Source of the DNA: a virus
Strand: one strand, 5' to 3'
Length of the DNA stretch: 40,716 nucleotides
IMG/VR virus record: IMGVR_UViG_3300021168_000053
Both the position numbers and the translations under genes were made by a program. Below the pieces are notes generated by a model. That model made no database searches, was not told the origin of the DNA, and was given only the letters and a program-made list of their open reading frames with translations. Shown one piece after another: positions 8,288 to 35,605 of the stretch (the first letter of the stretch is position 1; the number at the start of each line of letters is the position of its first letter).

Positions 8288-8319
8288 GTCCCATGTTGTA
8301 CGACCATGGGGAGGAGACC

Positions 8320-12163: not shown

Positions 12164-12192
12164 TTAACAACTGGCAGTAGCATGCAACCACC

Positions 12193-19659: not shown

Positions 19660-19672
19660 GCGACCAGGCTAC

Positions 19673-19912
19673 TTGTCTAGATCAGATCCGTCAACCGCTC
19701 ACGATCAATTGACAATCAGCTTGTCTGAGTGCGTGATAATCCTGATGAAAAAGGTAAGTACAACCGTTTATCTGACACCATCCCAAGTCCAGAGACTCAA
19801 AGCCCTGACTGAAACCACCAAAGTTCCGACGGCTGAGTACATCCGCCAGGGAATCGACATGATCCTCGCCCATATCGAAAGCAATCCCAACGTCATCCGT
19901 TTCGATAAGTAA
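19673..19912 (+). CDS. Ribbon-helix-helix (CopG/Arc/ParD-like) DNA-binding protein. The likely core starts at the internal Met (19745).
   Basis: VSTTVYLTPSQVQRLKALTETTKVPTAEYIRQGIDMIL is a typical beta-strand plus two-helix RHH pattern. Confidence 0.45.
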   Translation: MSRSDPSTAHDQLTISLSECVIILMKKVSTTVYLTPSQVQRLKALTETTKVPTAEYIRQGIDMILAHIESNPNVIRFDK

Positions 19913-19954
19913 GCCCTGGCTTGCTTGGCCGTACAACTCGAACACGGAGGAATT

Positions 19955-20539
19955 ATGCGCATCGCTTTCTATGGGGGCAGTTTCAATCCCCCCCACGTCG
20001 GACACCAGTTGACCCTGGCGTATGTGCTGTCGACGCAGAACGTCGACGAGGTATGGGTCGCGCCCGTGTTCAATCATCCCGATGGTAAGCAGTTGGTCGA
20101 TTTCGATCACCGCCTAGCTATGTGCCAGCACATGGTGTCGATGTTCGACAACAACCGCGTCGTAGTGAAGGACACCGAGAAAGAGGTCTACGAGCAGTTC
20201 GGAAGCGGCCTCACCATCAACACCGTTCGGTACCTTCTAAACAGGCCGAAGCTGGATGGCCACCAGCTCCTGCTCATTCTGGGCTATGACATCCTTCCGT
20301 CATTCGAGCGCTGGCAAGGCTACGAGGAGCTGGCAAAATTGCGATCCGCTGGCAAGTTGGACTTCTTCTTCGTAGGTCGCACTGGCCACGGCCATAGCCC
20401 CGTCGAAATGCCCCGCATCAGCTCAACCGAGATTCGCCAGATGCTTCTCAGCTCTGGCGAAATGAATGACGGCATGCTCGCCGGCATGTTGCCATCTGGC
20501 GTGCGTAAGTACATCCGGTCCACGAGGCTTTATCGATAG
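19955..20539 (+). CDS. nadD: Nicotinate/nicotinamide mononucleotide adenylyltransferase (NadD-type). ORF track start is 19925.
   Basis: AFYGGSFNPPHVGHQ (the (H/T)xGH nucleotidyltransferase motif of NadD) and C-terminal ISSTEIRQ motif. GGAGG lies 5 nt upstream of ATG 19955. Confidence 0.8.
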   Translation: MRIAFYGGSFNPPHVGHQLTLAYVLSTQNVDEVWVAPVFNHPDGKQLVDFDHRLAMCQHMVSMFDNNRVVVKDTEKEVYEQFGSGLTINTVRYLLNRPKLDGHQLLLILGYDILPSFERWQGYEELAKLRSAGKLDFFFVGRTGHGHSPVEMPRISSTEIRQMLLSSGEMNDGMLAGMLPSGVRKYIRSTRLYR

Positions 20540-20575
20540 CTGTAATACCAGCTGCAATTCGCCGTACAACGACCC

Positions 20576-21109
20576 ATGAGGTCAAGAGAATCCAAGGTCA
20601 TCGTTCGGCCCCAGGTAGCAGACTTTCGCTCGATTACCCGGAGAGCTAACCGCCTCGTAACAACCGTGAATCTCCACGTTCATTTCGAGAAATTCCCGTG
20701 GCTGATCTTCGGTCAGTGCGATTTTCAGTATCACGAAAGTCTCAAGCAGTGGCTCTTGAAGGCCTATCTCCCGGAAGGGGTCACCGACCCGGAGCACGAC
20801 AGCGCCTACGCTTTCCGTCTGCCGCTGGTGGGACTTCAGTTCAGTGGCCTTTGGTATCACCAGAGCCACTTTGATGCATGGGTCGACCCATCTGGAGCCG
20901 ACGACTTTCGCGTTCCGAAAACCGGGTACGATCCGCTGAAGTTGGCTGACACGCAGACGTGCACTGACTGCGACGAGAAGCATTTGATCGTCCCAGAGGG
21001 GCATTACGTGCCCCCGTTCGACCCTGATTTATTCAAGATGGTCGGTGGGAAGAGAGTCGAGATCGTAGTCGGATTCGTGGAGGAGGAGACGGAGGGATCA
21101 GGGACCTGA
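20576..21109 (+). CDS. Hypothetical protein, 177 aa
   Basis: ORF only. Confidence 0.45.
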   Translation: MRSRESKVIVRPQVADFRSITRRANRLVTTVNLHVHFEKFPWLIFGQCDFQYHESLKQWLLKAYLPEGVTDPEHDSAYAFRLPLVGLQFSGLWYHQSHFDAWVDPSGADDFRVPKTGYDPLKLADTQTCTDCDEKHLIVPEGHYVPPFDPDLFKMVGGKRVEIVVGFVEEETEGSGT

Positions 21110-21703
21110 AGGCCGCCTGCGCGCCTCGCCGAGGCGGTTTACCATCTCATCGTAATTCTTGCCGTCGTACCTGACCACATTTGGATGTTTGAAATCGATG
21201 TTCCACCGCTGGGCAATCATTATGACAAGCCCACGCGGTCGCCAGGTCAACCATCGCACGATGTACTCCGGCCAGTCATCGGCAAGGACGCGGCCGTATA
21301 CGAGTCCCTTGTCGCGACCAACGATCACTGGCGTTTCAGGTACATTGATATTGCACCAGTCGACCTTCTCACCCCACGCCCAGGTCGGCACCTTAGGACC
21401 GTTGGTCAGGACCAACTGGGTGTATTCAAGATTACGACAGGCCTCGAACACGTCGAACCCAAGCTGGATCCTCGGGAGGGTCCGCCAGAATCCAGGCTGG
21501 CTCTTGACCAGCCGACGACGCTCCTTATGCCAATCTGGCTCAGTGGCTTGGTTTGCGAGTAGCTTTGATCCTATGTCATTCTCGCCAGGGGAGGCGATCT
21601 TCTTGAGACCTTCTAGCATAGCGCCATCGAAGTCGGCCATGCTGCCATCGAGATCGTGAAGAGATACTGGCTCTGGGGGTGGGATATTCTCAGGATCAAT
21701 CAC
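21098..21703 (-). CDS. 5'(3')-deoxyribonucleotidase (NT5C family, HAD superfamily)
   Basis: DLDGSMADFDGA (DMDGVLADFEGG-type motif I), GFWRTLP, and a C-terminal region colinear with cytosolic/mitochondrial deoxyribonucleotidases. 201 aa. Confidence 0.75.
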   Translation of the reverse strand: MIDPENIPPPEPVSLHDLDGSMADFDGAMLEGLKKIASPGENDIGSKLLANQATEPDWHKERRRLVKSQPGFWRTLPRIQLGFDVFEACRNLEYTQLVLTNGPKVPTWAWGEKVDWCNINVPETPVIVGRDKGLVYGRVLADDWPEYIVRWLTWRPRGLVIMIAQRWNIDFKHPNVVRYDGKNYDEMVNRLGEARRRPSGP

Positions 21704-21910: not shown

Positions 21911-22438
21911 CTACTCCAGGACTGGCTGTTTGGGATCTAGATCGACGACAGTGCTGTGCCACCAGGGAGGGAAACGCTCCAGCTCGGAAACGAGTCTAGC
22001 GTGCTGGTCCGTTATCATTTCTAGCGTTACGCTATGTCTGTTGCGCTGATAGGCCTTCTCGGGATTCATTATCAGGGTGATGATCTCGACGTTATATCCG
22101 TACGCCTGGGCCACGGCTACATACGGCGCAAACTCAACAAGCGACGTATTCGTGTTATCGCAAACAATCAATTGCTGCTGCTGCGAACACGCAACTATCC
22201 ATCCCTTGAGACACCACTGATGCGCCTCGGAGAGGAGACTCGGATCGAATTCGTACTTCCCCTGATTGTTCTGCTGAAAGAAATGATCCGCAGAGAACAC
22301 CCTGGCGCCATAGTTGCTCACGAGCTTCATTGCCATCGTGGACTTGCCTGCCCCAGAACATCCGCGGTACACAATTGCCTTCATCCGTCGCTCCTGTTTG
22401 AGCCGTCTGAAGATTTGTTTGACGGTCTCCGTAGCCAT
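21911..22438 (-). CDS. P-loop kinase, polynucleotide-kinase (T4 Pnk kinase-domain/AAA_33)-like
   Basis: AIVYRGCSGAGKST Walker A. Spacing and the CDNTN segment are colinear with the T4 Pnk kinase domain (GCPGSGKST...SDTNLN). 175 aa. Confidence 0.6.
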   Translation of the reverse strand: MATETVKQIFRRLKQERRMKAIVYRGCSGAGKSTMAMKLVSNYGARVFSADHFFQQNNQGKYEFDPSLLSEAHQWCLKGWIVACSQQQQLIVCDNTNTSLVEFAPYVAVAQAYGYNVEIITLIMNPEKAYQRNRHSVTLEMITDQHARLVSELERFPPWWHSTVVDLDPKQPVLE

Positions 22439-22469
22439 AGACGCAACTGCTCCTCAACTTCTGACACCT

Positions 22470-22973
22470 TCAACGGATGATTTTCACAGCTTCCAACCAA
22501 CGCCTTGCGACTATGAGCCCATCCTCGCCTCGTTCGTCTATATAGAGATAGCGATTGAGCTTCCCGTGCTTCTTGAGAACCTCTTCTGCCTCTGCTCCTA
22601 TCCCATCTTCGAGCCAGTAGAAGTCCTCATTCGGCACGTCGATCGCGTCGATTTTGTCACCCCATCTCCCACCAGACCAGCGAGGTGGCATGCGACGCCA
22701 GTTGACATACTCGAACTCGGTTGCGACATGCGAATAGCCCAGCGTCATGAAGCCGGCGGTCTCCCGCTGCTTCTGATCGTTCGTCTTGCCTAGGAGCTGA
22801 TCTTCCCCCCAGCACGTGAGCCACTTGCAGTTGAATCGCTCAGCCGCCCACAACATGAACGAATTCGCTCCTGGTCGAAGCTGATATGAGCACGGATCAC
22901 CATAGAGCCCGAAGAAGACCCCGTCTACATCGAGGTACAAATTTGGCTTCTTCTCCTGTCCCATGGTGTCCAT
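22470..22973 (-). CDS. HAD-superfamily phosphatase, Pnk 3'-phosphatase-domain-like. ORF track start is 23036; the proposed start is 22973.
   Basis: LYLDVDGVFF (DxDG motif I, as in T4 Pnk VIFDVDGTLA). AAGGAGAAGGA RBS lies before the internal ATG, which avoids the 59-nt overlap with the upstream gene. Confidence 0.55.
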   Translation of the reverse strand: MDTMGQEKKPNLYLDVDGVFFGLYGDPCSYQLRPGANSFMLWAAERFNCKWLTCWGEDQLLGKTNDQKQRETAGFMTLGYSHVATEFEYVNWRRMPPRWSGGRWGDKIDAIDVPNEDFYWLEDGIGAEAEEVLKKHGKLNRYLYIDERGEDGLIVARRWLEAVKIIR

Positions 22974-22977
22974 GTCC

Positions 22978-23736
22978 CTATCCTTCTCCTTGTCCCAACC
23001 ACTTTGCGTACTTCGCTCTGGCACGAACTCGGACAAATTCCGGGTTCGGCCCCAGTTGTTGATCCTTGATTATCATCGCCGTCATGACGCCACCGAAGCA
23101 ACAGCCGGTGTCAATGCCGTAGCAGGTGACACCATCCTTCGGATGGTCGATCCGAGGATGCCAAAGATCATGGACAATATGGCCATAGACGACGTTTTCA
23201 GGACCAGTCCAAACGATTGACCACTCTTTCGACTCTGGCGGCCTGAACCCTGGTTTCGACGCCTTGAAGAGACCGTCGTTCTCCCCAACAAACCGAACAC
23301 GCAAGCAGGCGTTCGGATTTTGCTTGGCAACCGGGATATGGGGCTCGAATCCCGCGTGTACCATCATAAGCCGATCGAAGACTTTGATCGTCAGTGGCCA
23401 ACTCGCCATGTACTCGATGTCTTCGGGTCTCAAGCTCTCCCAGACAGCTTGCTTTTCCGGTCCCAGTTGGATCGGATTCTTCTTCCCTGTGCCAGCGTTG
23501 TTCTTCTCGTGCTTGGCGTACCTGACGTATTTCTCGTCATGGTTGCCCATTGCGACACGGGCGCGAAACTCCTTCGTCCGCCGCACGCACCCGACAGAAT
23601 CTGGGCCTCGATCAACCATGTCGCCAACGAAGAAGAGGTTATCGACTCCAGTCCGATACTCAACGAGCTTGAGAAGCTCATCCAGCTCCTCTAGGCAGCC
23701 GTGAACATCGCCGATCACTATGTCACGACCTCGCAT
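22978..23736 (-). CDS. PPP-family metallophosphoesterase (lambda phosphatase/ApaH-like Ser/Thr phosphatase)
   Basis: GDVHGC, GDMVDRGPDS and GNHD motifs in canonical order. 252 aa. Confidence 0.85.
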   Translation of the reverse strand: MRGRDIVIGDVHGCLEELDELLKLVEYRTGVDNLFFVGDMVDRGPDSVGCVRRTKEFRARVAMGNHDEKYVRYAKHEKNNAGTGKKNPIQLGPEKQAVWESLRPEDIEYMASWPLTIKVFDRLMMVHAGFEPHIPVAKQNPNACLRVRFVGENDGLFKASKPGFRPPESKEWSIVWTGPENVVYGHIVHDLWHPRIDHPKDGVTCYGIDTGCCFGGVMTAMIIKDQQLGPNPEFVRVRARAKYAKWLGQGEG

Positions 23737-24404: not shown

Positions 24405-24848
24405 ATGGGGGTCTTGATGCAGGCTACGCGACTGGAGGACCAGATGACCGGCACCAACATGCAGCTCATTGCCAAAGCCATTGTCCGCGCAGCTAAAAAG
24501 CTGCCTGACCGACCACTCCAGATCTCCTTGGTCCAGCTGCATGAAGACTTCGGCTCTCCCTCTCCTGTTGCCTGTGGGGCCTATCTTGCCGGCGAAGAGA
24601 ACATGCTGCCCTTGGGTGTGGCGCTCTCCCAGGAAGGGTGGCAAGGACCGCCTCCGATCTATAAGGATGGCCATCTGTTTATCCAGGAATGGCCATCTGA
24701 TATCTGTTCTCTCTGGGATACGGTCCTTGTCGCCAGCGGTAACTACGAAGCAAGTCAACAGAAGGCCACTAGTGCGGGGCAGCTTCTGAAACACATCCTA
24801 ACCGAGTTCTCCGAGGCTGCCAACAAAGCAATCACAGGGAAGGCGTAG
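24405..24848 (+). CDS. Hypothetical protein, 147 aa, first gene of the phosphatase-kinase operon
   Basis: ORF. Same strand as, and 6 nt upstream of, the PP2C gene. Confidence 0.45.
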   Translation: MGVLMQATRLEDQMTGTNMQLIAKAIVRAAKKLPDRPLQISLVQLHEDFGSPSPVACGAYLAGEENMLPLGVALSQEGWQGPPPIYKDGHLFIQEWPSDICSLWDTVLVASGNYEASQQKATSAGQLLKHILTEFSEAANKAITGKA

Positions 24849-24854
24849 ACTATC

Positions 24855-25691
24855 ATGGCTACCACTGACGCAGTCGAAGTCTTCGAGTTCGCCTCTGGTT
24901 CGATCACTGGGCGTGAGCATCAGCTAATCGGCAAGAACAATCAGGATGCGTTCTCAATTACCAGCTCAGCCGGACATTTTGTGGCAGTCGTCTGCGACGG
25001 CTGTGGCAGCAGCAAACATAGCGAGGTCGGAGCGCAGATTGGAGCTTCAATAATTGGGAAGGTCGTTAGCAAGGCACTGATTTACAGTGCACCTACCAAC
25101 GTGATGAATGCCTCTGCGTTCTGGGAAGACATCCGCCGCGAAATAACCCATCGGCTCACATCTGTCGCGTACAACATGACACCATCTAATAGAGACTTGC
25201 GCGAAACGGTGGAGAGGTTTTTCCTCTTCACCATCGTCGGAATCGCCATCACTCCCAACTTCGTGGTGCCGTTCTCGATCGGCGATGGCATCTGGATCAT
25301 CAATGGCAAGAAGCATCGCCTTGGCCCCTTCGAGAACAACGCACCGCCTTATATCGGTTACGGTCTGATCCGCAATAATGGCGGGTGGAAGGATGAGCAA
25401 CTTCGCATCCGGTTAGGCGACATCTACGTTGTCGAGGAAGTGCGTAACGCGCTCATCGGCACTGACGGAGTCATAGATCTGATCGGTGTACTCCCGGAGG
25501 GAGAGTACATCAACCAATTCTGGGACGACTCCAAGTACTTCACAAACCAAGACGGCGTCAGACGCCGGCTTTGCCGGTTGAACATGGCTCGGGAAACAAT
25601 CAACTGGGAGCAGCGCAGAGTTGATCGCCAGCATGGCCTTCTCCCCGATGACACCACTCTCATCTCCATACGGAGAAAGGTTAGCCTGTGA
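24855..25691 (+). CDS. PP2C-family Ser/Thr protein phosphatase
   Basis: PP2C motifs in order: GKNNQDAF...VAVVCDGCGS (motifs 1/2), FSIGDGIWII (GDSR-type), LIGTDGVIDL (DG motif), DDTTLISI (terminal DN-T motif). Stop overlaps the kinase start (GTGA). Confidence 0.75.
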   Translation: MATTDAVEVFEFASGSITGREHQLIGKNNQDAFSITSSAGHFVAVVCDGCGSSKHSEVGAQIGASIIGKVVSKALIYSAPTNVMNASAFWEDIRREITHRLTSVAYNMTPSNRDLRETVERFFLFTIVGIAITPNFVVPFSIGDGIWIINGKKHRLGPFENNAPPYIGYGLIRNNGGWKDEQLRIRLGDIYVVEEVRNALIGTDGVIDLIGVLPEGEYINQFWDDSKYFTNQDGVRRRLCRLNMARETINWEQRRVDRQHGLLPDDTTLISIRRKVSL

Positions 25692-27580
25692 ACGTCTACA
25701 TCGCTGGTAAGCGTGTCACTGTCGAACCGGCTCGTGCTATTGGCAAGGGCGGCGAAGCTGACATCTATGACATCACAATTTCGTCCAGCGATCCTATCGT
25801 TCTCAAGCTGTTCAAGCAGCCTGATCATCCTGATCTAATAGGAGACAAGAACGAGCAGAGTGCAGCTACAGCTCGGCTTCAACGCCACCAGCATAAGCTC
25901 CCCGAGTTCCCCAAAAACCTGCCGGCCAATGTAATTGGTCCCAAAGATCTTGCCTACTCCGCAGCCAAGAATGGATCCGTCGTCGGTTACACGATGACGT
26001 TCCTCAACAACACCGAGCCACTACTGCGCTACCAAGAAAAGAAGTTCCGCGCTGGCGCACCTGCCGATTGCATCCGGGACATCTTTCTAGATCTCCATCG
26101 CACGGTCGATAGCATCCACTCGCAATCGATCGTGATTGGCGATTTCCACGACCTTAATATCCTGGTCAATAAAGCTCACACCGCTGTCGCAATCATAGAC
26201 ACCGACAGCTTCCAATTTGGGAAGTGGTTCTGCAACACCTTTACTGAGGTGTTTGTCGATCCGCTCTTGTGTGACAACAAGGCCACGTCCCCCACACTGG
26301 TATGCCCGCACAATGCGATGTCGGACTGGTATGCCTATGCCATCATGCTGATGCGTTGCATGCTATTCGTCGGGCCTTACGGCGGCATCTACAAACCCAA
26401 GGACCACAAGAAAAATATTCCGCATCCTGCTCGGCCGATGCACCGGATCAGCGTTTTCCACCCTGACGTGCAGTATCCCAAACCCGCCATTCCCTACAAG
26501 CTCCTCAGCGATGAGCTTCTGCACCATCTTATCCAAGTCTTCGAGCAGGACTATCGCGTTCGGTTCCCCGAGCAGCTAGTGGCAGATCTTCGCTGGACTA
26601 CGTGCAACAAGTGCGGCATCGCTCATGCCCGACGCACCTGCCCGGACTGCAAGCCCACGCCGGCAGCAGCCGTTGCTTCCACGACGACAATCCGCGGGAA
26701 GGTTACCGTGTCGACGCTGTTCAAGCTGAAGCAAGGGCGAATCGTCTTCGCAACCGTACAGGGCGGCGACCTCAAGTACGTCTACCACGACGGCAATGAA
26801 TACTGCCGCGAGGGTGGACGAACCGTCCTGAAGGGTGCACTGATTCCATCTGGATCTGCCAGGATCCGTGGAGCCGACACCCTTATGATTGAGAAACATG
26901 GCTTCATGATGATGAAGCCTGGTGATATTCCGTTGTCAGCCGCTTACAAAGGGCAGACCTACACATCAGATAGCTGCGACGCCAATTCCAAGCATTTCTA
27001 CTGGTCAGAAGCTGGGGTTCTGAAACGCGACGACGTTCACGGTCCTGCCTTCATCGGCAACGTACTGATGGATCGAACCAAATTTTGGGTCGGTGAAGCA
27101 TTCGGCTTCGGCTTCTATCGTGCGGGGAATCTCAGCGTTGCTTTTGTGTTCGACGCTGAGCGACAAGGAATCAACGACAACGTCAAGTTCCCCCGCATCA
27201 CCGGCGAGCTAATGGATTGCACCTGCGTCTTCACAGACAAGCTGGCGTGGTCATTTCAGATGATCAAAGCAGGTGCGAAGACCATCAATCGCTGCGTTGT
27301 TGTGACGAGGGCTGGGGATATCCTCGCTACTGCTGAGGCTGACGCTGGAGACCCGTCCTGGCTGGGCAGCATCAGAGGGAAGGCTCCCGTCAGCGGTTTC
27401 TTGTTCGCTGCAACGGACGATGGGCTTGTACGGGTGGAGGTGCAGAACGGGGCGCTGGTTGTTACCCGCCAGTTCCCTGACACGGAATCGTTCGTCGACT
27501 CGGAAACGCGGCTGCTGGTCACTGGCAAAGGGCTAGTGGCAGTGGGTCCGCAAGAAATCAAATTGATCGAGATGAAATGA
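25688..27580 (+). CDS. Protein kinase (protein-kinase-like fold, RIO/Kdo/eukaryotic-like) with an internal Cys4 zinc ribbon and a C-terminal beta-propeller-like repeat domain
   Basis: G-loop IGKGGEADIY, beta3 Lys in VLKLFK, catalytic loop IVIGDFHDLNILV (D...N spacing 5), Mg-binding AIIDTDSF, and an ePK-like alphaF SDWYAYAIMLMRCMLFVGPYGG. Then CNKCG...CPDC. The C-terminal 300 aa has repeated beta-strand blocks with G/D turns. Confidence 0.7.
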   Translation: MNVYIAGKRVTVEPARAIGKGGEADIYDITISSSDPIVLKLFKQPDHPDLIGDKNEQSAATARLQRHQHKLPEFPKNLPANVIGPKDLAYSAAKNGSVVGYTMTFLNNTEPLLRYQEKKFRAGAPADCIRDIFLDLHRTVDSIHSQSIVIGDFHDLNILVNKAHTAVAIIDTDSFQFGKWFCNTFTEVFVDPLLCDNKATSPTLVCPHNAMSDWYAYAIMLMRCMLFVGPYGGIYKPKDHKKNIPHPARPMHRISVFHPDVQYPKPAIPYKLLSDELLHHLIQVFEQDYRVRFPEQLVADLRWTTCNKCGIAHARRTCPDCKPTPAAAVASTTTIRGKVTVSTLFKLKQGRIVFATVQGGDLKYVYHDGNEYCREGGRTVLKGALIPSGSARIRGADTLMIEKHGFMMMKPGDIPLSAAYKGQTYTSDSCDANSKHFYWSEAGVLKRDDVHGPAFIGNVLMDRTKFWVGEAFGFGFYRAGNLSVAFVFDAERQGINDNVKFPRITGELMDCTCVFTDKLAWSFQMIKAGAKTINRCVVVTRAGDILATAEADAGDPSWLGSIRGKAPVSGFLFAATDDGLVRVEVQNGALVVTRQFPDTESFVDSETRLLVTGKGLVAVGPQEIKLIEMK

Positions 27581-27591
27581 GGAGGATCGTG

Positions 27592-28641
27592 ATGCCGAAC
27601 CAATTGCCAATGCCGCTGTTCTACAATCCGAAGACTGCTCGCGACTGGGCCTATTCTCCGAACCAGATGAAGCTGTTCGAGTCTTCCGCCGGGTGGAAGC
27701 GCGAGCACAACGTCAAACCCGCCGCGACGGACAAGTTCAACCTTCACGTCCTGCTGATCGACGTGCAGAAGGACTTCTGCTTCAAGGAAGGCTCGCTCTA
27801 CGTTGGCGGACGCTCAGGCGACGGCGCTCTCGACGACAATCAGCGTACGGCGGAATGGATCTACCGCAATCTCCATCGCATCACGAAGATGAGCTGCACG
27901 ATGGACACGCACTTCGCCTACCAGATCTTCTTCCCCTCGTTCTTTCTCGACCAGGACGACAAGCCCTTGTCGGCGTTCCGCACAGTCGTGGCCGACGAAA
28001 TTCGCAGCGGCAAGGTCAAGGTCAATCCCGCCGTCACGCATCTCGTGAACGACTACGCCTGGCTCCAGAAGCAGGTCATCCACTACTGCCAGGAGCTGGA
28101 GAAGCAGGGCAAGTACCAGCTCTACATGTGGCCGGCTCACTGCATCCTCGGCTCCGACGGTCATGCTCTCGTCGGCAGCATTCACGAGGCGCGCATGTTC
28201 CATTCGTACATCCGCGGTGCTCAGTCGGACTGCGAGGTCAAGGGTGGTCACCTTCTCACCGAGAACTATTCGGTGCTCCGTCCCGAAGTTCTCACGCGTC
28301 ACGACGGACAGGGTGCGCTCGCCCAGAAGAACACCCACTTCATCCAGACGCTGCTCAAGGCGGACGCGGTAGTGATTGCGGGCCAAGCGGCGTCGCACTG
28401 CGTTCTCTCGTCGATCGATGACCTGCTCAACGAGATCCACACGCAGGACCCAACCCTCGCCAAGAAGGTCTACGTCATGACGGACTGCATGTCGTCGGTG
28501 ACGGTGCCGGATGGGAAGGGCGGCTTCTTCGCCGACTTCACCGACAATGCGCAGAAGGCGCAGCAGAAGTTCGCCGACGCGGGCATGCATCTGGTGAAGT
28601 CCACCGATCCGATCGACGGCTGGCCCGACCTGAAGATCTGA
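27592..28641 (+). CDS. pncA: Nicotinamidase (PncA)/isochorismatase-family cysteine hydrolase with insertions. ORF track start is 27577.
   Basis: LLIDVQKDFC...GSLYVGG (PncA VDVQNDFC...GSL-V-GG), WPAHCI (PncA WPxHCV), and AGQAASHCVLSS (catalytic Cys). GGAGG lies 6 nt before ATG 27592. Confidence 0.75.
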   Translation: MPNQLPMPLFYNPKTARDWAYSPNQMKLFESSAGWKREHNVKPAATDKFNLHVLLIDVQKDFCFKEGSLYVGGRSGDGALDDNQRTAEWIYRNLHRITKMSCTMDTHFAYQIFFPSFFLDQDDKPLSAFRTVVADEIRSGKVKVNPAVTHLVNDYAWLQKQVIHYCQELEKQGKYQLYMWPAHCILGSDGHALVGSIHEARMFHSYIRGAQSDCEVKGGHLLTENYSVLRPEVLTRHDGQGALAQKNTHFIQTLLKADAVVIAGQAASHCVLSSIDDLLNEIHTQDPTLAKKVYVMTDCMSSVTVPDGKGGFFADFTDNAQKAQQKFADAGMHLVKSTDPIDGWPDLKI

Positions 28642-28643
28642 TC

Positions 28644-28907
28644 ATGGCGATTACAGCACAGGGCAAAGAGGCTGCGCTCAAAGCCCTAAAGGAGCGACGC
28701 GAAAAGAACAAGGACAAAGAAGCTGTCGACAACAGCAAGCTCCCCGCCGGCTCGCCGATGTATTTCGACTGCATCGGCTGCAACGGAAATATCGTCGTGC
28801 CGGAAAGCTACATGTCTCGGCCTAAGCTGTGTGGCGAATGCCAAGCGATGAAAGACCTGGGCTGGCTCGTAGCTAGCCCCAGAAAGGATCATTATGAGCA
28901 CCAGTAA
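28644..28907 (+). CDS. Small zinc-ribbon protein, 87 aa
   Basis: CIGCNG...CGEC (C-x2-C...C-x2-C). Overlaps the next gene start. Confidence 0.5.
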   Translation: MAITAQGKEAALKALKERREKNKDKEAVDNSKLPAGSPMYFDCIGCNGNIVVPESYMSRPKLCGECQAMKDLGWLVASPRKDHYEHQ

Positions 28908-29691
28908 GAATGTGAATGAGCTGTTCAATCAGGCCCACAATGAAGGGACGTTGTCCGCCCAGTCGATGCAGACGATCCAGATCTTGGACCCTGGCGCCCA
29001 GATCAACAATGCTCTCGGCATCAAAGTCGACGACGTGCAGGCCAGCGAAGTTGTGCTCGTCTCTCTTCTTGTCGACGATTCGGGCTCCATCCGCTTCGCC
29101 GGCAACGCCGACGTGGTACGGGAAGGTCACAACGGCTGCCTCGACGCGCTCTCGAAGTCCAAGCAGAAGGACAACGTCCTGGTCCACACGCGCTACCTCA
29201 ACGGGCAGATCCTCTATCCCTACTGCGCGCTCGACGGTGCGACGAAAATGGATACGCACAACTACAATCCCAACGGGGGGACGCCGCTCAACGACGAGAC
29301 GGTCACCATGCTAGCGACGGTGCTAGCTAAGTGCCAGGAGTTCAAGGCCAACGGCGTTCCCTGCCGTACCGTCACTCTGATCGTTACCGACGGCCGCGAC
29401 GAGCATTCCCACAAGACAACGGTCTCCCAGGTCGCCCACCTGGTAAAAGACATGCTCATGCAAGAGACCCACATCATCGCAGCGATGGGCATCGACGATG
29501 GAGTCACTAACTTCAAGGCGGTATTCTCCGAGATGGGGATCAGGCCGGAGTGGATTCTCACGCCCGCCAACACGCAGTCGGACATCCGCAAGGCCTTCGG
29601 GGTCTTCTCTCAGTCGGCCGTACGCGCTTCGCAGTCGGCAGCAAGCTTCTCCAAAACAGCTGGTGGCGGCCTCGGCGGCTTCACAGCCTGA
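28894..29691 (+). CDS. von Willebrand factor A (vWA) domain protein, TerY-like
   Basis: Complete MIDAS: DDSGS (DxSxS), GGTPL (Thr) and TDGRDE (Asp) with correct spacing. 265 aa. Confidence 0.75.
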   Translation: MSTSKNVNELFNQAHNEGTLSAQSMQTIQILDPGAQINNALGIKVDDVQASEVVLVSLLVDDSGSIRFAGNADVVREGHNGCLDALSKSKQKDNVLVHTRYLNGQILYPYCALDGATKMDTHNYNPNGGTPLNDETVTMLATVLAKCQEFKANGVPCRTVTLIVTDGRDEHSHKTTVSQVAHLVKDMLMQETHIIAAMGIDDGVTNFKAVFSEMGIRPEWILTPANTQSDIRKAFGVFSQSAVRASQSAASFSKTAGGGLGGFTA

Positions 29692-29729
29692 GCTGGTAAT
29701 CTCCGCCTTCTTCCCTCGTACAACTCGTC

Positions 29730-29978
29730 ATGGCTCAGCAAGTCATGATTGTTTCAACCACGCGGCCCGACCTGCGCGACGAGATCTTTGGGTGGACCGT
29801 TGAGGATCCGAACCTCTTCGTGCCTGGCAAACCCATTGGCTACACACCTCACGCTCGCGACCTCTCGCGACCTGGCACCGTGATGGAAGCTCTTGCCTTT
29901 GGCTGGAGGCTGCTGGCGCCTCCGACAGAGGACAAAGACCTTGAGGGATGGACATGGTGGCTGGTCCGTGATGCGTAA
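29730..29978 (+). CDS. Hypothetical protein, 82 aa
   Basis: ORF only. Confidence 0.35.
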   Translation: MAQQVMIVSTTRPDLRDEIFGWTVEDPNLFVPGKPIGYTPHARDLSRPGTVMEALAFGWRLLAPPTEDKDLEGWTWWLVRDA

Positions 29979-29991
29979 TCTCGGTTGCAAT

Positions 29992-30027
29992 TTCTCATGT
30001 ACACGAGAATTCTCCTGACCATGAGAA
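29992..30027 (+). promoter_or_regulatory. Nested palindromes upstream of the TPM gene. TTCTCATG (29992-29999) and CATGAGAA (30020-30027) flank the perfect 10-bp palindrome GAGAATTCTC (30005-30014).
   Basis: Seen in sequence in the 140-nt gap before 30120. An AAGGAG RBS follows near 30105. This is operator-like. Confidence 0.3.
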
Positions 30028-30119
30028 TACCTAGACAATCGCGACATCACCTATCATCGTGCGGGACGTAACAGGCCCCCTCGATTGTTCTTTAGACGGG
30101 CAAAAAAGGAGACAGACGC

Positions 30120-32696
30120 ATGCGTTCCAGTTTGGCCTTGATGACCATGGCACTTTTCGCAAGTCCGGCATTTGCGGATCTTCCCGCACCCCGGCTCGTG
30201 CCTGGGCAGCATGTCTACTTCATTCCCGATGGCTACTTCAACCCGGATTTCAATGGGACGCAGATCCAGCGGATCAACACTGCGGCGCAGTCTCTCAAAT
30301 ACCCTTTCTTCGTGGTCGTCAGCCAGTATCTGCCCGGCGGCACCGACCAGGCGGCTGCCGACGCCATCAACAGCATCGCGGAACAATGGACACGCCATGG
30401 TGGATTCGATCCGGGTACGTCATCCGTCTTCCTCGTCTCGTACGCGCCTCAAAAGTGGCGCTTCGTCGCGGGCACGGAATGGCAGTCGAAGTTCGGCATG
30501 ATCAAGAAAGCGACAGCCACATATACCAACAACTTCGTGACTGCCGCAAAGCGTCGCCCGCGGGATCTGGCTGGCGGAATCATCAACACGATGACGGCAT
30601 TCGATTCGTACCTCTGGGAACAGACCGACCCAGTCCGCATCGCTGCTCGCGAAAAGACCGCACAGGAAGAAGCAGCACGCACGCGTTTGCGCGAAGCGAA
30701 GGCCAATATCGATGGCGCGATCGAGCATCTGTCCAGTCTCCTCACCGATAAAGAATATCTACCCAAGGACGTGACGGAATATACCCAGCTCGCAACCATT
30801 CTCGATCAGGCGCGGAAGTCAGACAACGCCGACACGATCACCAGCGTCACCGGAGATGCTCTGCCGAAGATCCAAAAGCTGGATGGAATGGTCTCGCTGA
30901 AGCAATCAGAAGCGAGTGCACGCACCGCTCGTCACATCGCCGAGACGATCTTCTTCCTTCTGATCGCTGGCGCCATCGGCATCTGGTACTTTCGACGGAA
31001 GAGGCGCTTCAACAGCTTGCGCGATTCGTTCGAGATTGAAGCCACCAAGTGGGAGCAGATGGTCACGAATGCTTCCAACAACTATGCTTCGGTCTATCTC
31101 GATCGTGACGATCTTGTCGGAATGTCTTCCATCCAGGGTGACACCAAGAAGCTGTACGACTCCGTTACGGCGGAGGTTAACGACATTTACCTGTGCATAA
31201 AAGCCCTGGAAGCACACGTCGCAGAATGCCGCGCGCTCGCCGAGAGTGCGAACCTCTTCGACATGGATCCCCTCCTCAAGGCGAAGACAGACCTTGACGG
31301 AGACTTTCAGTTCGACACCGAGAAGGTCAATGCCGACGAGTTGTTCGGAAGGGAGACCAAAGTCATCAAAGTCAATGCAGCAAAGTTCGCTGCCGACCAG
31401 GCCACCCGCTTCAAGAAGGCCAAGAGTGAGTGGGATCGCCTCAAGACTGCTGCCCGTGAGCGAGTCGAGCCTCTTGACGCCATGCTCAAGAGCAAGTCCT
31501 TCGAGGAGTGCAAAGCCAAAGCAACCGGCGTCTGGCAGCGTTGGATCAAGGACCATCCGCTTTATGACGGGCTGGATACGATCACCAAAACACTGAACTC
31601 TCTCCGCGTTCAGGATCCAATCGCCGCTCACAAGCAAGCCACTGAGCTTTTGGCTCGGGGCGCGGTCATGGAAAGCCGCTTCAGCGAAATGTACGATGCG
31701 GTGGAGTCCATCAAGAAGGCCAAGCCCGACAAGCTGCCCGACTTCACCGGGACTATCCTCAGCGACAAAGACAACCCGCAGGAGATCTTGAAACAAGCCG
31801 CCGATGCCGAGACCAAGCTTGCGGGTATGCTCGCGTCGTTCCCTGTTACAGATTCCAGCCCGGTCATCGGACAGGCGAAGCAGATCGCCGACCTCTATCG
31901 GCGCGCAACTCAGCAATCCTTCGAGATCAAAGCTGCGATTGAGCAAGCCGCTCAGGCTATCACCAGAGCGCAGAGTCTCCGCTCTGCCGCTGATCAGGGT
32001 ATTACAATCGGACAGAAGGCCATCGACGCCGCGGAAAAGGTGCACGACGAGAAGGGACTCAAGGCCGCTCGCGACACCATCAATACAGCTCAGAAGCGCC
32101 TTTCGGCTGGCAGTGCGGATCTTGAGACTGCGGTGCAGGCGATCAATACGAAGAAGCATCTGGAGGCTCTCCGTGCTGCGAACTCGGCCGCACAGAGTTA
32201 CACGACCGCAGCAGAGACTGCATCCAAGGCCAAACAGATCTGCAATGAGCTGGACCGCAAGAAAGCCGAATTCGAGCGGAAGCAGGCAGAAATCAAAGCC
32301 AATTACGAACGGAAGCAAGCTCGCTACCGCCAGTATGGCGGACGGAGCACCTTACAGCAGCCGACGGTGATCATTCAGAATAACAACACAAACAACAATC
32401 GTGCCGATTACGACTTCATGTTGACCCAGATAGTGATGGAAGAAGCCATGTGGGACCAGCAGATCGCCTCCGCTCAACAAGCGCAGGAAGCTGCGGAGCG
32501 CGCGGCAAGACAGGCCGCTGAAGAGGCGGAGCGAGCTGCCAGGTACGCTCGCGAGGAGTCCGACCGGCAATCTAGGTACTCATCACGAAACGATGACGAC
32601 AGCTCCTCTGGGAGCAGCTGGAGTAGCTCTGACAGTTCTGATGGCGGAAGCTTCGGCGGTGGTGGATCTGACGGTTCAGACGGAGGTAGCTTTTGA
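30120..32696 (+). CDS. TPM-domain (TLP18.3/Psb32/MOLO-1 phosphatase-fold) membrane protein. It has a signal peptide, an extracytoplasmic TPM domain, one TM helix, a roughly 550-aa coiled-coil-rich cytoplasmic region and a Gly/Ser/Asp-rich tail.
   Basis: MRSSLALMTMALFASPAFA signal. TPM-like PFFVVVSQYLPGG...AEQWTRHGGFDPGTSSVFLVSYAPQKWRFVAGTEW. TM IAETIFFLLIAGAIGIWYF. Tail SSSGSSWSSSDSSDGGSFGGGGSDGSDGGSF. 858 aa. Confidence 0.65.
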   Translation: MRSSLALMTMALFASPAFADLPAPRLVPGQHVYFIPDGYFNPDFNGTQIQRINTAAQSLKYPFFVVVSQYLPGGTDQAAADAINSIAEQWTRHGGFDPGTSSVFLVSYAPQKWRFVAGTEWQSKFGMIKKATATYTNNFVTAAKRRPRDLAGGIINTMTAFDSYLWEQTDPVRIAAREKTAQEEAARTRLREAKANIDGAIEHLSSLLTDKEYLPKDVTEYTQLATILDQARKSDNADTITSVTGDALPKIQKLDGMVSLKQSEASARTARHIAETIFFLLIAGAIGIWYFRRKRRFNSLRDSFEIEATKWEQMVTNASNNYASVYLDRDDLVGMSSIQGDTKKLYDSVTAEVNDIYLCIKALEAHVAECRALAESANLFDMDPLLKAKTDLDGDFQFDTEKVNADELFGRETKVIKVNAAKFAADQATRFKKAKSEWDRLKTAARERVEPLDAMLKSKSFEECKAKATGVWQRWIKDHPLYDGLDTITKTLNSLRVQDPIAAHKQATELLARGAVMESRFSEMYDAVESIKKAKPDKLPDFTGTILSDKDNPQEILKQAADAETKLAGMLASFPVTDSSPVIGQAKQIADLYRRATQQSFEIKAAIEQAAQAITRAQSLRSAADQGITIGQKAIDAAEKVHDEKGLKAARDTINTAQKRLSAGSADLETAVQAINTKKHLEALRAANSAAQSYTTAAETASKAKQICNELDRKKAEFERKQAEIKANYERKQARYRQYGGRSTLQQPTVIIQNNNTNNNRADYDFMLTQIVMEEAMWDQQIASAQQAQEAAERAARQAAEEAERAARYAREESDRQSRYSSRNDDDSSSGSSWSSSDSSDGGSFGGGGSDGSDGGSF

Positions 32697-33187
32697 GTAC
32701 CGCCATCTATCCGGGATCGTTCGACCCGATTACCTATGGGCACATGGACGTCATCGACAAAGCCCAACGAGCCTTCGATAAGGTGGTGATCTGCGTCGGA
32801 GTCAATCAAAAGAAAACCCCAACATTTACGCCGCAGTATCGATGCGATCTTATCAAGGAGCTGTACCCGGACTGCGATGTCATCACGTGGAATGGTCTCA
32901 TCGTCGAAGCCGCGAAACACGTGGGCGCAGCGGTCATTGTGCGAGGATTCCGTGCATTGGCCGACTTCGAGGCGGAGTTTCGGATGGCACATATCAATAA
33001 ACGGCTGGCGCCGGATATCGACACGGTGATGTTCCCAACAAGCGAGGAAACAACGTTCTACTCCTCCTCAATCGCAAAGGAACTAGCGATGGTCGGTGCT
33101 CCGCTCATCGACATCGTTCCTGCATCAGTCGAGCGTGCCCTCCGGGATACTTTCAGACCCGTCAATATCCAAAAAACGCCTAGGTAA
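32693..33187 (+). CDS. coaD: Phosphopantetheine adenylyltransferase
   Basis: TTG start overlapping the upstream stop. AIYPGSFDPITYGHMDVI (the T/HxGH motif of PPAT) and the typical 160-aa length. Confidence 0.85.
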   Translation: MSTAIYPGSFDPITYGHMDVIDKAQRAFDKVVICVGVNQKKTPTFTPQYRCDLIKELYPDCDVITWNGLIVEAAKHVGAAVIVRGFRALADFEAEFRMAHINKRLAPDIDTVMFPTSEETTFYSSSIAKELAMVGAPLIDIVPASVERALRDTFRPVNIQKTPR

Positions 33188-33241: not shown

Positions 33242-34114
33242 GTGATATTCCCCGAGCCACCGCAATCCAAGCGCCAGGCTGTACTGGAGCAGGTCTTCGC
33301 TCCTTGTGAGCTGGACTATCCCTGGCTCAGGAACCGGACAATATTTCTCACACTCCACGGATCGCACGCCCATGGCACCAATCGTGAGGGCAGCGACTAT
33401 GACGTAAAGGGCATCTGCCTCCCGCCTCTCGAACATTACTGCGGACTCCGGCGTGACAAGCACATGTTCCAGCAAGTTGACCGGCATAACCCTATTGACC
33501 TGGTCATCTACGAGCTTCAGAAGTTCTTGAAGCTTGCAGCCAACTGCAATCCGACCATTATCGAAATTCTCTTCACTGATCATGCGCACCATCTGCATCT
33601 GACAAGCGTTGGGGATGAGCTGCTACGACATCGGGACCTGTTCATCTCGAAACGAGCAAAGTCCTCTTTCGGAGCATATGCGAAGGATCAATTCGACAAG
33701 ATCAAACGTCATCGAAGCTGGCTAACGAGTCCTCCCAAGGAGTCAGATAGCCCTGAATGGGTGGCCTATCAGAACCACTTGAAAACACGGAACCAGAAGC
33801 GTCTGGAGCTAGAGAAAAGGTTCGGTTACGACACGAAACATGCTTTTCACCTAGTGCGACTACTTCGGATGGCCTTGGAAATCACGCGTGACGGTGTTGT
33901 ACTAGTCACACGACCCGATGCAGGTGAGCTTCTCCGTATCAAGGATGGAGCCTGGTCATTTGAAGAACTGACTGAGTGGGTAGATCGTCAGTACGCACTG
34001 ATTGATGCCGCCTTCAGGACTTCAGCCGTCCCTGAGGTGTGCAACATAGAGGCTATTGAGCGCCTCTGTGTGGACATAACACGACAAACGCTGGAGCGAG
34101 ATATCGCCGGATAG
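33242..34114 (+). CDS. Putative nucleotidyltransferase (Pol-beta superfamily, MNT-type) with a C-terminal helical domain
   Basis: LHGSHAHGTNREGSDYDVKGI matches the GS-x9-13-DxD minimal nucleotidyltransferase signature. 290 aa. Confidence 0.55.
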   Translation: MIFPEPPQSKRQAVLEQVFAPCELDYPWLRNRTIFLTLHGSHAHGTNREGSDYDVKGICLPPLEHYCGLRRDKHMFQQVDRHNPIDLVIYELQKFLKLAANCNPTIIEILFTDHAHHLHLTSVGDELLRHRDLFISKRAKSSFGAYAKDQFDKIKRHRSWLTSPPKESDSPEWVAYQNHLKTRNQKRLELEKRFGYDTKHAFHLVRLLRMALEITRDGVVLVTRPDAGELLRIKDGAWSFEELTEWVDRQYALIDAAFRTSAVPEVCNIEAIERLCVDITRQTLERDIAG

Positions 34115-34746: not shown

Positions 34747-35084
34747 TCAGCGAAGATGAAGAGTGGGAGCTGCGGCTAGAGAACGCCCGCCTGCGTGCTC
34801 GCGTTTTCGAGCTTGAACAGTCGATCGCCAAACATCGTGCCGCCGACGGTAACGACCTCTGCTGGGAAAACAACCTGGAACTCTGGGCAACGCTGAAGGA
34901 CGACGTTCCGTATCCGCACAAAAGCATTCCACCGTGGCCGCAATTCCTATCGAATTGCGTGAAGTACCGATCCCAACTGGATGCTCCTCAGCCGATCGCA
35001 CCAAGTGCGAGTAAACCACTCGACAGGTGGTTCGACTCGAAATGGACCGGCATCCTCAATGCCGCGAGCAAGACCAAACGTTAG
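34743..35084 (+). CDS. Hypothetical protein, 113 aa (ORF track start 34674)
   Basis: GGAG lies 4 nt before ATG 34743. Translationally coupled to the upstream gene. Confidence 0.4.
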   Translation: MISEDEEWELRLENARLRARVFELEQSIAKHRAADGNDLCWENNLELWATLKDDVPYPHKSIPPWPQFLSNCVKYRSQLDAPQPIAPSASKPLDRWFDSKWTGILNAASKTKR

Positions 35085-35605
35085 TCCCAATTGCCGCGGA
35101 TGTAGTCTTTGTACCGCCAGGTCTTACCAGTAACGTGATCGTTGACTTGCCCGTCCTGTGCTCTGATAGTACGGCGCTTGTCGCCACGCATCCCCGAGCC
35201 CACCTGGCGTTTCCTATCGTCTGCCCTAGCTGAGACCACCTTCTCCTGCTCTACGGCCCATAGACGCGAACGCAGAAGCTCCAAAGCTAGCTGGCGGTTA
35301 TGGTGCTGACTTCGCCCGTCTTCAACACGCACCTGGAGCTTCGTTGGGATGTGCGTGATCTGGACAGCTGACTCTGTTTTATTGCGGTGCTGTCCACCAG
35401 GTCCAGATCCACGGCAGGTGGACCACTCCAGGTCTCTTGGATCTATGCGAACTTGGGCTTCGGTGGGATCCGGGAGAACAGCTACCGTGATTGTTGAGGT
35501 ATGAACGCGTCCACGCTTCTCATTTGGGGGGATCCGCTGCCAACGGTGGCCGCCAGACTCATCGCGGAAAGCCACATCAGCACCGACACCGCCAGCACGA
35601 AACAC
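35081..35605 (-). CDS. Truncated class-I peptide chain release factor homologue (PrfH/RF-H-like). It keeps the GGQ domain and part of domain 2/4, and lacks domain 1. GTG start at 35605; the frame is open to 35665.
   Basis: RAGGVGAD...ESGGHRWQRIPPNEKRGRVHTSTITVAVLP...RGSGPGGQHRNKTESAVQITHIPT...EDGRSQHHNRQLAL aligns with RF1/RF2 from the RAGTGGDE block onward, with the middle segment deleted. An in-frame TGA at 35666-35668 is preceded by non-RF sequence. Confidence 0.7.
   Translation of the reverse strand: MFRAGGVGADVAFRDESGGHRWQRIPPNEKRGRVHTSTITVAVLPDPTEAQVRIDPRDLEWSTCRGSGPGGQHRNKTESAVQITHIPTKLQVRVEDGRSQHHNRQLALELLRSRLWAVEQEKVVSARADDRKRQVGSGMRGDKRRTIRAQDGQVNDHVTGKTWRYKDYIRGNWD

Follow-up and report, generated by a model that had tools for sequence, protein, structure and literature searches.

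A four-gene cassette of PP2C phosphatase, kinase, nicotinamidase-like amidase and vWA protein shared by cells and huge phages, and its predicted link to NAD+ turnover

At positions 24405 to 32696 of the virus record IMGVR_UViG_3300021168_000053, a PP2C-type phosphatase gene, a kinase gene and a gene for a von Willebrand factor A (vWA) protein stand together with a PncA-like amidase gene and a gene for a large membrane protein. The locus raises two questions: which of these genes belong together, and with which area of metabolism or defense is the group associated? We call the whole stretch of DNA that was analyzed, 40,716 nucleotides (nt) long, the window. The original prediction for this locus was a TerY-P-like phosphorylation triad into which a nicotinamidase gene had been inserted and which had a TPM-domain membrane protein as its partner. 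Comparison across cellular and viral genomes indicates instead that the real unit is a cassette of four genes encoding the PP2C phosphatase, the kinase, the PncA-like amidase and the vWA protein. The block had been described as seven co-directional genes; its coordinates and single strand were correct, but eight open reading frames (ORFs) were found, every one on the + strand:

24405-24848, + strand: g1, 147 amino acids (aa), at the head of the block; lineage-specific and outside the conserved cassette
24855-25691, + strand: g2, PP2C-type Ser/Thr phosphatase, 278 aa; core gene 1
25688-27580, + strand: g3, Hanks-like kinase with a Cys4 zinc ribbon and a C-terminal beta-propeller, 630 aa; core gene 2
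27592-28641 (ORF also open from 27577), + strand: g4, predicted PncA-type, nicotinamidase-like cysteine amidohydrolase, about 350 aa; core gene 3
28644-28907, + strand: g5, small CxxC...CxxC zinc ribbon between the amidase and the vWA protein, 87 aa; lineage-specific
28894-29691, + strand: g6, vWA protein with a metal ion-dependent adhesion site (MIDAS) and a conserved SQ-rich C-terminal tail, 265 aa; core gene 4
29730-29978, + strand: g7, 82 aa, no family assigned; lineage-specific
30120-32696, + strand: g8, TPM-fold membrane protein, 858 aa; adjoins the cassette but is not a member

A profile of the kinase was scanned against one genome per species, 185,579 species genomes in all, and identified 416 relatives. 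Their hosts are cyanobacteria (many relatives of Pseudanabaena and Leptolyngbya, Kovacikia, and Nodosilinea PCC 7104), Patescibacteria, Saccharibacteria, Myxococcota (on the chromosome of Minicystis rosea), Planctomycetota, Acidobacteriota, Gammaproteobacteria, Gemmatimonadota and a metagenome-assembled genome of the Aenigmatarchaeota (DPANN). The proteins of the window were compared by tblastn with 85 fetched loci, and the neighboring genes were clustered over 80 cellular loci; the neighborhoods covered were flanks of 10 kb. Of the 85 loci, 82 had the PP2C gene, 77 the amidase gene and 73 the vWA gene, and contig ends account for most of the misses. Without exception the genes ran PP2C, kinase, amidase, vWA on a single strand. 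Chance juxtaposition was rejected, as order and strand are kept in about 70-80 of the 85 fetched loci. The original prediction had accepted that homologs which never co-occur elsewhere would refute it; the co-occurrence found strongly favors a real system, although the membership of that system differs from the one proposed. Rather than having been inserted into a triad, the PncA-like gene is a fixed fourth member, present in the same 70-80 or so loci and in 13 of 15 IMG/VR contigs, and all three of the closest amidase homologs that were sampled lie within the same cassette. A survey of neighborhoods for a recurring PncA or TPM gene had been proposed; the first recurs and the second does not. 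None of g1, g5, g7 and g8 was found in the 80 cellular loci or in 15 viral loci, and in the 85 loci the matches to these four, to CoaD and to RlaP were confined to two other assemblies of the same element. By this distribution g1, g5, g7 and g8 are lineage-specific neighbors and not members of the cassette.

The surroundings of the cassette in cells include ribosomal, ATP-synthase and photosystem-assembly genes. In one 1.49-Mb contig (L107, positions 1905-9862) the genes run NrtR, an unknown protein of 482 aa, PP2C, kinase, amidase, vWA and DUF1152, and this extended cassette sits between a ribosomal-protein operon and an ATP synthase operon, which is a core-genome site and not an island. Other loci have additional genes within the cassette. 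Twelve Pseudanabaena-type loci (L028, L037, L038, L043, L046, L047, L052, L057, L067, L070, L075 and L082) carry an extra conserved ORF of 198 aa with no Pfam match between the kinase and amidase genes. In Kovacikia (L003), PP2C and kinase are separated by two ADP-ribosylglycohydrolase (ARG) genes together with one for OGFr_N, and Uma2 genes stand between later members of the cassette; of the four products there, NCBI names two 'hypothetical protein', one 'PP2C domain-containing protein' and one 'isochorismatase'. Extra genes are tolerated at the junctions of the cassette, g5 and g7 being the phage examples. In two contigs from JGI, one of 1.7 Mb (L004) and one of 228 kb (L005), the cassette is intact while gene calls in the surrounding 20 kb yield dozens of fragments of 25-160 aa, with PAD_porph in three pieces, which suggests either an alternative genetic code or heavy pseudogenization in that organism.

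Alignment of each of the four core proteins with its homologs indicates that the predicted active sites are intact in all of them and under selection. The g2 protein matches Pfam PP2C_2 (E=3.5e-17) and its metal-binding aspartates D31, D48, D204, D265 and D266 are invariant in 32 homologs, as are the pairs D48-G49 and D204-G205, in keeping with the predicted PP2C domain; against PADLOC it has only a marginal match, to PDC-M21C (E=0.0099). The vWA protein g6 has a MIDAS: among 30 homologs D61, S65, T130 and D166 never vary, conservation of D62, S63 and G64 reaches 90% or more, and two serines of the C-terminal tail, S239 and S246, are also invariant. Taken alone, g6 passes no Pfam threshold (VWA_CoxE, E=0.098), but 3 of the 30 family members match Pfam VWA (best E=5.9e-5), so the earlier call of a vWA/MIDAS protein stands; g6 also matches phrog_7371 (E=2e-9). 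The vWA protein is the most conserved protein of the cassette, at about 55-65% identity across phyla.

The kinase assignment of g3 stands on motifs and fold, its score of 22.8 bits against Pfam Pkinase being under the cut-off of 31.7. In an alignment of 22 sequences the GKGGEA glycine loop, K40/K43 in the region of the beta-3 lysine, the motif GDF[N/H]DLN, the Mg-binding residues D171/D173 and the motif SDWY are invariant, and so are the zinc-ribbon cysteines C306, C309, C318 and C321. Sequence profile searches of PDB with the vWA and kinase families found no match, and folds were searched instead. The AlphaFold2 model of g3 has a predicted local distance difference test score (pLDDT) of 82.6; in Foldseek its N-terminal half resembles the kinases CK2, Hck and PknG, and its C-terminal half the beta-propellers of the clathrin N-terminal domain, Nup159, WIPI2 and WDR41. 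Zinc ribbon and propeller had both been part of the original prediction. More than 1100 homologs, about 50% identical, align over the full length. The catalytic loop GDFHDLN had been called divergent; it is indeed not HRDLKPEN, but within its own family it is a one-residue variant of the consensus GDFNDLN. We also considered a small-molecule kinase, since the HRD-Lys is missing and the family has GDFNDLN in its place; this is less likely given the invariant SDWY, which resembles subdomain IX, and the best fold matches, which are protein kinases.

The amidase g4 exceeds the Pfam Isochorismatase cut-off narrowly (28.1 bits against 27, covering residues 232-310 only) and scores 21.4 against an NCBIfam nicotinamidase equivalog whose cut-off is 174. 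When the family profile was compared with PDB, the sole match was PncA of Mycobacterium tuberculosis (3PL1, 22.7 bits). The catalytic triad D62, K222 and C275 is invariant in 29 homologs and aligns to D8 and C138 of that enzyme; the metal-site residues D110, H112 and H188 are invariant in the same homologs, and the WPxH motif aligns to WPPHC of 3PL1. These observations uphold the family named in the original prediction. The closest homologs (64-68% identity) carry the name 'nicotinamidase' in their source records. The M. tuberculosis enzyme has 186 aa and g4 about 350; g4 carries an N-terminal extension, and its D-x-H and WPxH motifs lie about 70 residues apart.

The metabolic area of the cassette was approached through its recurrent neighbors. 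Clustering of ORFs over the 80 cellular loci identified a fifth recurrent gene, which encodes NrtR (NUDIX plus the winged helix NrtR_WHD, E=1e-28) and lies directly upstream of PP2C in 52 loci, divergently in cyanobacteria and co-directionally in most other groups. The cyanobacterial spacer between NrtR and PP2C contains a TTGACA -35 hexamer followed by two tandem TAGTGT-N7-ACACTA palindromes. Allowing up to one mismatch, we found 114 such sites in 1.72 Mb of loci. In 61 loci, drawn from many phyla, sites of this kind precede the PP2C gene by no more than 400 bp; they are usually arranged in tandem, with TTGACA shortly before them. Most NrtR motifs have the symmetry of a 21-bp palindrome with a GT-N7-AC core, and ADP-ribose weakens the binding of NrtR to DNA (PMC2330246). 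The TAGTGT-N7-ACACTA sites of cells are of this published type, and we predict them to be NrtR operators. From one to three ADP_ribosyl_GH (ARG) genes lie between PP2C and kinase in 27 cyanobacterial loci; PncB is found near the cassette in 10 cellular and 5 viral loci, and 9 loci have a NadD-NadK-like fusion. Families of Ter, restriction or CoCoNuT genes do not recur beside the cassette in this clustering. With NrtR and its operators, ARG, PncB and NadD as recurrent partners, all of them genes of NAD+ and ADP-ribose, the neighborhoods point to turnover of nicotinamide adenine dinucleotide (NAD+). They do not point to metal stress, nor to the two roles that had been suggested for this locus, superinfection exclusion and sensing of the host envelope.

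A further feature of the Pseudanabaena spacers between nrtR and PP2C is an inverted array of an AATTACG heptamer (e.g. AATTACGAATTACG...CGTAATTCGTAATT) between nrtR and the operator and promoter. Such arrays occur in L028, L037, L042, L043, L047, L070, L075 and others, and their copy number varies by strain.

The window itself comes from an element that is phage-like by homology: its SNF2-type helicase shares 58% identity with the one in an uncultured phage of 485 kb and matches many cultured phages too, and several window ORFs match PHROGs, in agreement with the earlier supposition that the element is a phage. A scan of IMG/VR found 15 contigs with relatives of the kinase, almost all of them 221-545 kb in length. 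All four cassette genes are present in 13 of these and PP2C in 14; one contig (L089) starts within the kinase, which places the PP2C region outside it, and another (L097) has a truncated kinase only and no detectable amidase. Neither NrtR nor ARG was found beside the cassette in any of the 15 viral loci, and no operator was found near their PP2C genes; the window likewise has no NrtR homolog, and no operator even at up to 2 mismatches. Judged by these genes and predicted sites, the cassette family belongs to the NrtR regulon in cells and the phage copy does not. In a sister phage (L101), which carries DUF5131, the whole region is syntenic, with identities to the window of 85% for the amidase, 78% for the vWA protein, 71% for the kinase, 47% for PP2C and 46% for g8. 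A search of the GenBank phage collection, by megablast with the block and by tblastn with the kinase, gave no close relatives; a 462-kb GenBank phage, LR756500.1, has a divergent amidase-vWA-kinase variant. Best-hit distances of the kinase and the vWA protein are about equal between viral copies and between viral and cellular copies (the latter mostly binned to the candidate phyla radiation) and are uninformative on whether the phage copies are monophyletic. Two other genes of the window bear on NAD+ and ADP-ribose:

19925-20539, + strand: NadD-like nicotinate/nicotinamide-nucleotide adenylyltransferase (TIGR00482), about 4.3 kb upstream of the PP2C gene
6794-7642, - strand: DraG-like ADP-ribosylglycohydrolase (phrog_6572, TIGR02662), elsewhere in the window

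The NadD-like protein scores 92 bits against TIGR00482 (E=4.6e-26), which is under the cut-off of 112, and a homolog of it lies close to the cassette in one viral locus (L098) and three cellular loci. The DraG-like protein matches phrog_6572 at E=5e-26 and TIGR02662 at E=6e-18.

The reading that we favor, at a confidence somewhat short of even, is that the cassette is a phosphorylation-gated module for nicotinamide salvage that huge phages have captured to manage the NAD+ of their hosts. The mechanism we infer is the following. Because ADP-ribose releases NrtR from DNA, the cellular cassette should switch on when NAD+ is cleaved to ADP-ribose and nicotinamide. The amidase would turn the released nicotinamide into nicotinate, which would feed the PncB-NadD-NadE route to NAD+. 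The kinase, PP2C and vWA proteins would form a reversible phospho-switch, as has been proposed for TerY-P triads, in which the propeller or the MIDAS face of the vWA protein, both candidate sensor or binding surfaces, may bind a target or a signal. Phosphorylation would gate the amidase or its complex, and the invariant SQ-rich tail of the vWA protein (S239, S246) is a candidate phospho-acceptor. Since the phage cassette lacks NrtR and operators, as do at least 13 other huge-phage contigs, its expression is expected to be under phage control. There it would act alongside the phage's own NadD-like enzyme and ADP-ribosylglycohydrolase, and its likely purpose would be to maintain or restore NAD+ in the infected cell, for instance in the face of NAD+-depleting defenses, by analogy with NARP1-3.

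Several points weigh against this. The role given to the kinase, PP2C and vWA triad is conjectural throughout, and its substrate is putative. The resemblance of g4 to characterized PncA is only remote and its nicotinamidase activity is a prediction; with roughly 150 aa more than the M. tuberculosis enzyme, the protein could have a different substrate. Removal of nicotinamide could equally deny the resynthesis of NAD+ by routes that use nicotinamide. The strong conservation of the cassette and its housekeeping neighborhoods suit plain metabolic regulation as well as they suit a role in conflict. The window contains no PncB and no NadE, and three more steps would consequently fall to enzymes of the host. 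Finally, structural genes were not encountered in the window's 40.7 kb, and its viral status, like that of the IMG/VR contigs, rests on classification and homology.

A more ambitious form of the salvage reading, which we put forward as doubtful, makes the cassette an ADP-ribose-induced, phospho-gated complex that decides the fate of the nicotinamide released by immune NADases and ADP-ribosyltransferases. In bacteria and some archaea it would be an NrtR-controlled arm of recovery or denial in NAD+-centered immunity. Huge phages would have taken it up repeatedly, minus the repressor, and would use it against host defenses as a fourth way to reconstitute NAD+, one that proceeds by deamidation.

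Among the alternatives, the one that survives best sees in the cassette a housekeeping regulator of NAD+ homeostasis within an ordinary NrtR regulon, which phages would carry as an auxiliary metabolic set in the manner of CoaD and CoaE. NrtR regulons classically hold pncA, pncB, nadD and nadE (Rodionov et al. 2008, PMC2330246), and the cassette shares with these salvage operons an adjoining Nudix-winged helix-turn-helix NrtR, GT-N7-AC palindromes, a PncA-type enzyme and frequent PncB and NadD neighbors; its other neighbors are housekeeping genes, its sequences are highly conserved, and genes for the cofactor enzymes CoaD, CoaE and the NadD-like protein lie in the same window. We nevertheless hold this explanation to be unlikely. 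The scan returned only 416 kinase matches in 185,579 species genomes, and these in scattered hosts, which is unusual for a housekeeping function, and the tandem ADP-ribosylglycohydrolases and repeated capture by huge phages suggest a link to conflict over ADP-ribosylation and NAD+. The cassette also differs from the salvage operons in that its amidase is of a distinct, long subfamily that always occurs with the kinase, PP2C and vWA genes, which lie outside any described NrtR regulon, and in that the phage copy has neither NrtR nor operators. Closer to conflict are the ARG-centric systems under NrtR or WYL control (Iyer et al. 2022, PMC9503650, section 3.8), for which a role against viral ADP-ribosylation has been predicted and with which the cassette has in common a Nudix-HTH repressor, ARG (in the 27 cyanobacterial loci), a vWA protein, which in those systems was interpreted as a peptide-binding chaperone (PMC9503650), and a proposed induction by ADP-ribose. 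That paper makes no mention of PP2C, isochorismatase or nicotinamidase, its phosphatases being rhodanese-type, calcineurin-like, HD or HAD, and ARG is optional in the cassette, unlike in the systems it describes.

The models of PADLOC-DB 2.0.0 include TerY-P, and this bears on the next explanation, that of the original prediction, in which the triad senses infection and triggers an antiviral defense of the TerY-P type and a phage carrying it excludes its competitors. TerY-P as defined by Anantharaman et al. 2012 combines a vWA protein, PP2C and a Ser/Thr kinase with a C-terminal zinc ribbon, and TerY-P-like modules appear as stand-alone defense systems in Gao 2020, the kinase of that version having an OB fold (both as recounted in PMC11090510). 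The cassette has a vWA protein conserved at the level of the MIDAS, an adjacent PP2C and a kinase with a C-terminal zinc ribbon, so that the architecture described there fits, and a reversible phospho-switch would be natural for both. A patchy distribution across phyla, which suggests horizontal transfer, and the predicted immune role of NrtR-regulated ARG systems (PMC9503650) also favor defense. However, g6 and all 30 vWA homologs were without a match in PADLOC, and the kinase homologs matched generic kinase-domain models only (MkoA, PD-T4-6, mad6). No Ter, restriction or CoCoNuT genes are linked to the cassette, no effector is obvious besides the amidase, conservation is unusually high (45-65% identity across phyla), the cassette lies among ribosomal, ATP-synthase and photosystem-assembly genes, and many huge phages carry it. 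Relative to TerY-P as presented there, the cassette is distinguished by the order PP2C-kinase-amidase-vWA, by an obligate PncA-like amidase, by the extra beta-propeller on the kinase, by the lack of Ter, CoCoNuT and restriction neighbors, and by the NrtR control of its cellular copies. We therefore consider a TerY-P-type antiviral or superinfection-exclusion function quite unlikely, and what can be kept of the original assignment is that the cassette is a TerY-P-like triad by predicted architecture, not by curated family. The operon DRA0331-0334 of Deinococcus radiodurans (bioRxiv 10.64898/2026.01.23.701218) is likewise a signaling operon of vWA, Ser/Thr kinase and PP2C, but, as described, it includes an FHA protein, lacks an amidase and any link to NrtR, and is tied to DNA-damage sensing. 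In the literature covered, with the primary TerY-P paper outside its scope, we found no description of a vWA, PP2C and kinase set combined with a nicotinamidase and NrtR or ARG.

Denial of nicotinamide is an improbable explanation in our view. Here the nicotinamide would be destroyed upon cleavage of NAD+, which would starve the phage pathways NARP1 and NARP2 and reinforce immunity by NAD+ depletion, while the phage copies would serve competition between phages or relieve product inhibition of phage enzymes that use NAD+. As these pathways have been described, NARP1 consists of Adps and Namat, NARP2 converts nicotinamide to nicotinamide mononucleotide and then to NAD+ by Nampt and Nmnat, and NARP3 consists of PnuC and NadR; NARP1 and NARP2 both consume nicotinamide, and a comparable host counter to NARP1 is reported for aRES. 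The predicted induction by ADP-ribose through NrtR and the intact PncA-type active site of the amidase would suit denial. It is, however, entirely conjectural, and it leaves the retention of the whole cassette by phages unexplained; the frequent neighbors PncB and NadD, with PncB in 5 viral loci, argue for salvage over denial. NARP1-3 resemble the cassette in being phage-borne enzymes that act on the breakdown products of NAD+ and are proposed or shown to work against NAD+-depleting immunity, although for the cassette that role is a proposal of ours. As described, none of the three has a nicotinamidase or a kinase, phosphatase and vWA triad, and the cassette matches none of their enzyme sets; only the NadD-like protein about 4.3 kb upstream resembles a class of NARP component.

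Least probable of all, and by our estimate very much so, is an amidase substrate other than nicotinamide (nicotinamide mononucleotide, nicotinamide riboside, NAD+ or another amide), with the cassette making or destroying a signaling or toxic nucleotide: the length, N-terminal extension and motif spacing of g4 and its very weak scores against models of characterized nicotinamidases leave room for it, but all residues of the PncA triad and metal site are invariant, close homologs are named nicotinamidase by their sources, and PncB, the user of the nicotinamidase product, recurs as a neighbor.

The membrane protein g8 had been proposed as a partner of the triad. It consists of a signal peptide and a TPM-fold domain, followed by a transmembrane helix (near residues 277-297), an extended helical part on the cytoplasmic side and a tail rich in Ser, Gly and Asp. 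No Pfam model matches it at E<=0.1, TPM_phosphatase included, and a sequence profile search of PDB with the N-terminal domain found no TPM entry and no match of any kind. A low-confidence model of residues 20-178 (pLDDT 59.6, predicted template-modeling score 0.59, from a 3-sequence alignment) nevertheless has TPM folds as its top 15 PDB matches in Foldseek (TM-score 0.41-0.58, probability 0.80-1.00), among them 2kw7, Psb32, BA41/BA42, 2kpt, AtTLP18.3 and 7tbr. The TPM domain, transmembrane segment and coiled-coil arm that had been described are in this sense supported, the fold by a model of low confidence. The partnership is not: g8 is missing from all 80 cellular and 15 viral loci, and among 5.8 billion protein clusters it has two homologs only, one in the syntenic sister phage and one, full-length, standing alone in a bacterial contig that has no cassette. 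As a cassette partner g8 was rejected for this absence from all other loci and for the stand-alone bacterial homolog, and with it a false lead is removed, the TPM membrane protein being outside the system. That homolog, in a contig from a bioreactor metagenome (L103, positions 10001-12247 and 18158-21582), adjoins a TetR gene and is 6-9 kb from a Hachiman-like pair of HamA and helicase, two PDDEXK_2 genes and a Fic-like gene; the setting may be similar to a defense island.

The packing of the block was examined as well. Distances between successive ORFs are +6 nt (g1/g2), -4 (g2/g3), -4 (g3/g4), +2 (g4/g5), -14 (g5/g6), +38 (g6/g7) and +141 (g7/g8), and no terminator-like site occurs on the + strand inside the block. 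The packed block extends past 32696, where CoaD (32693-33187) overlaps g8 by 4 nt and RlaP comes next, so the translational coupling noted in the original prediction reflects the gene packing of the phage and is no evidence of a functional unit. For g4, a GAGGAGG ribosome-binding site lies 7 nt before 27592 and the gene caller also starts there (349 aa), which makes 27592 more likely as the true start than 27577 (354 aa).

The translation of g5 shows CIGC...CGEC. Compared with two other assemblies of the same element (L001 from ENA and L002 from Logan), the window has 2 nt deleted near 28869 (28860-28880 of the window, 13175-13190 of L001); because of this indel g5 has 76 aa in those assemblies and ends before the vWA gene, as against 87 aa with a 14-nt overlap here. 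The difference is either a strain variant or an assembly error. Neither g1 nor g7 has a match in Pfam, PHROGs, PADLOC or NCBIfam, and homologs of g1 (34% identity), g5 (53%) and g7 (47%) were found in the sister phage L101 alone, that of g1 at the equivalent position. The slot of g1 is the one held by NrtR in many cellular loci; a diverged NrtR was considered for it, no similarity was detected, and we make no such claim.

Other genes of the window deserve a brief account. CoaE (7643-8287, - strand, TIGR00152, E=8e-41) and CoaD (32693-33187, + strand, TIGR01510, E=3e-47) both score above the curated cut-offs and correspond to the last two steps of CoA synthesis; beside the NAD+ genes they look like a theme of cofactor metabolism. 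A set resembling RNA repair is found at 21911-23736 (- strand), 33242-34114 (+ strand) and 35081-35605 (- strand). It includes a P-loop kinase (AAA_33/Pnkp-like), a metallophosphatase of the ApaH/Pnkp type (NinI-like PHROG), an RlaP nucleotidyltransferase and a 174-aa protein that corresponds to the C-terminal half of release factor 1 only (prfA, E=1e-54, model positions 179-337; also PrfH-like). RlaP lies near the cassette in two more huge-phage loci, L097 and L098. At 114-1430 (+ strand) a protein of 438 aa has the shoulder domain of the Major Vault Protein (E=1.8e-25) and a vault repeat domain, which is unusual for a phage-like element. At 8320-9858 (- strand) a protein of 512 aa has an N-terminal GHKL ATPase (HATPase_c_3, E=1.9e-7; phrog_6203), and it is followed by an ORF of 389 aa without matches.

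Depletion of NAD+ and its reversal are now central to the conflict between phages and bacteria, with Thoeris, DSR and Sir2-HerA on the side of the hosts and NARP1-3 on that of the phages. The comparison made here defines a widespread four-gene unit, of which public annotation gives no hint, that joins Ser/Thr phospho-signaling to a nicotinamidase-like enzyme. All of its parts are small soluble proteins with evident catalytic residues, which opens the idea to direct testing. If it is true, phages would have, besides their known NAD+ strategies, a regulated entry into the Preiss-Handler route, and TerY-P-like triads would gain their first concrete biochemical output.

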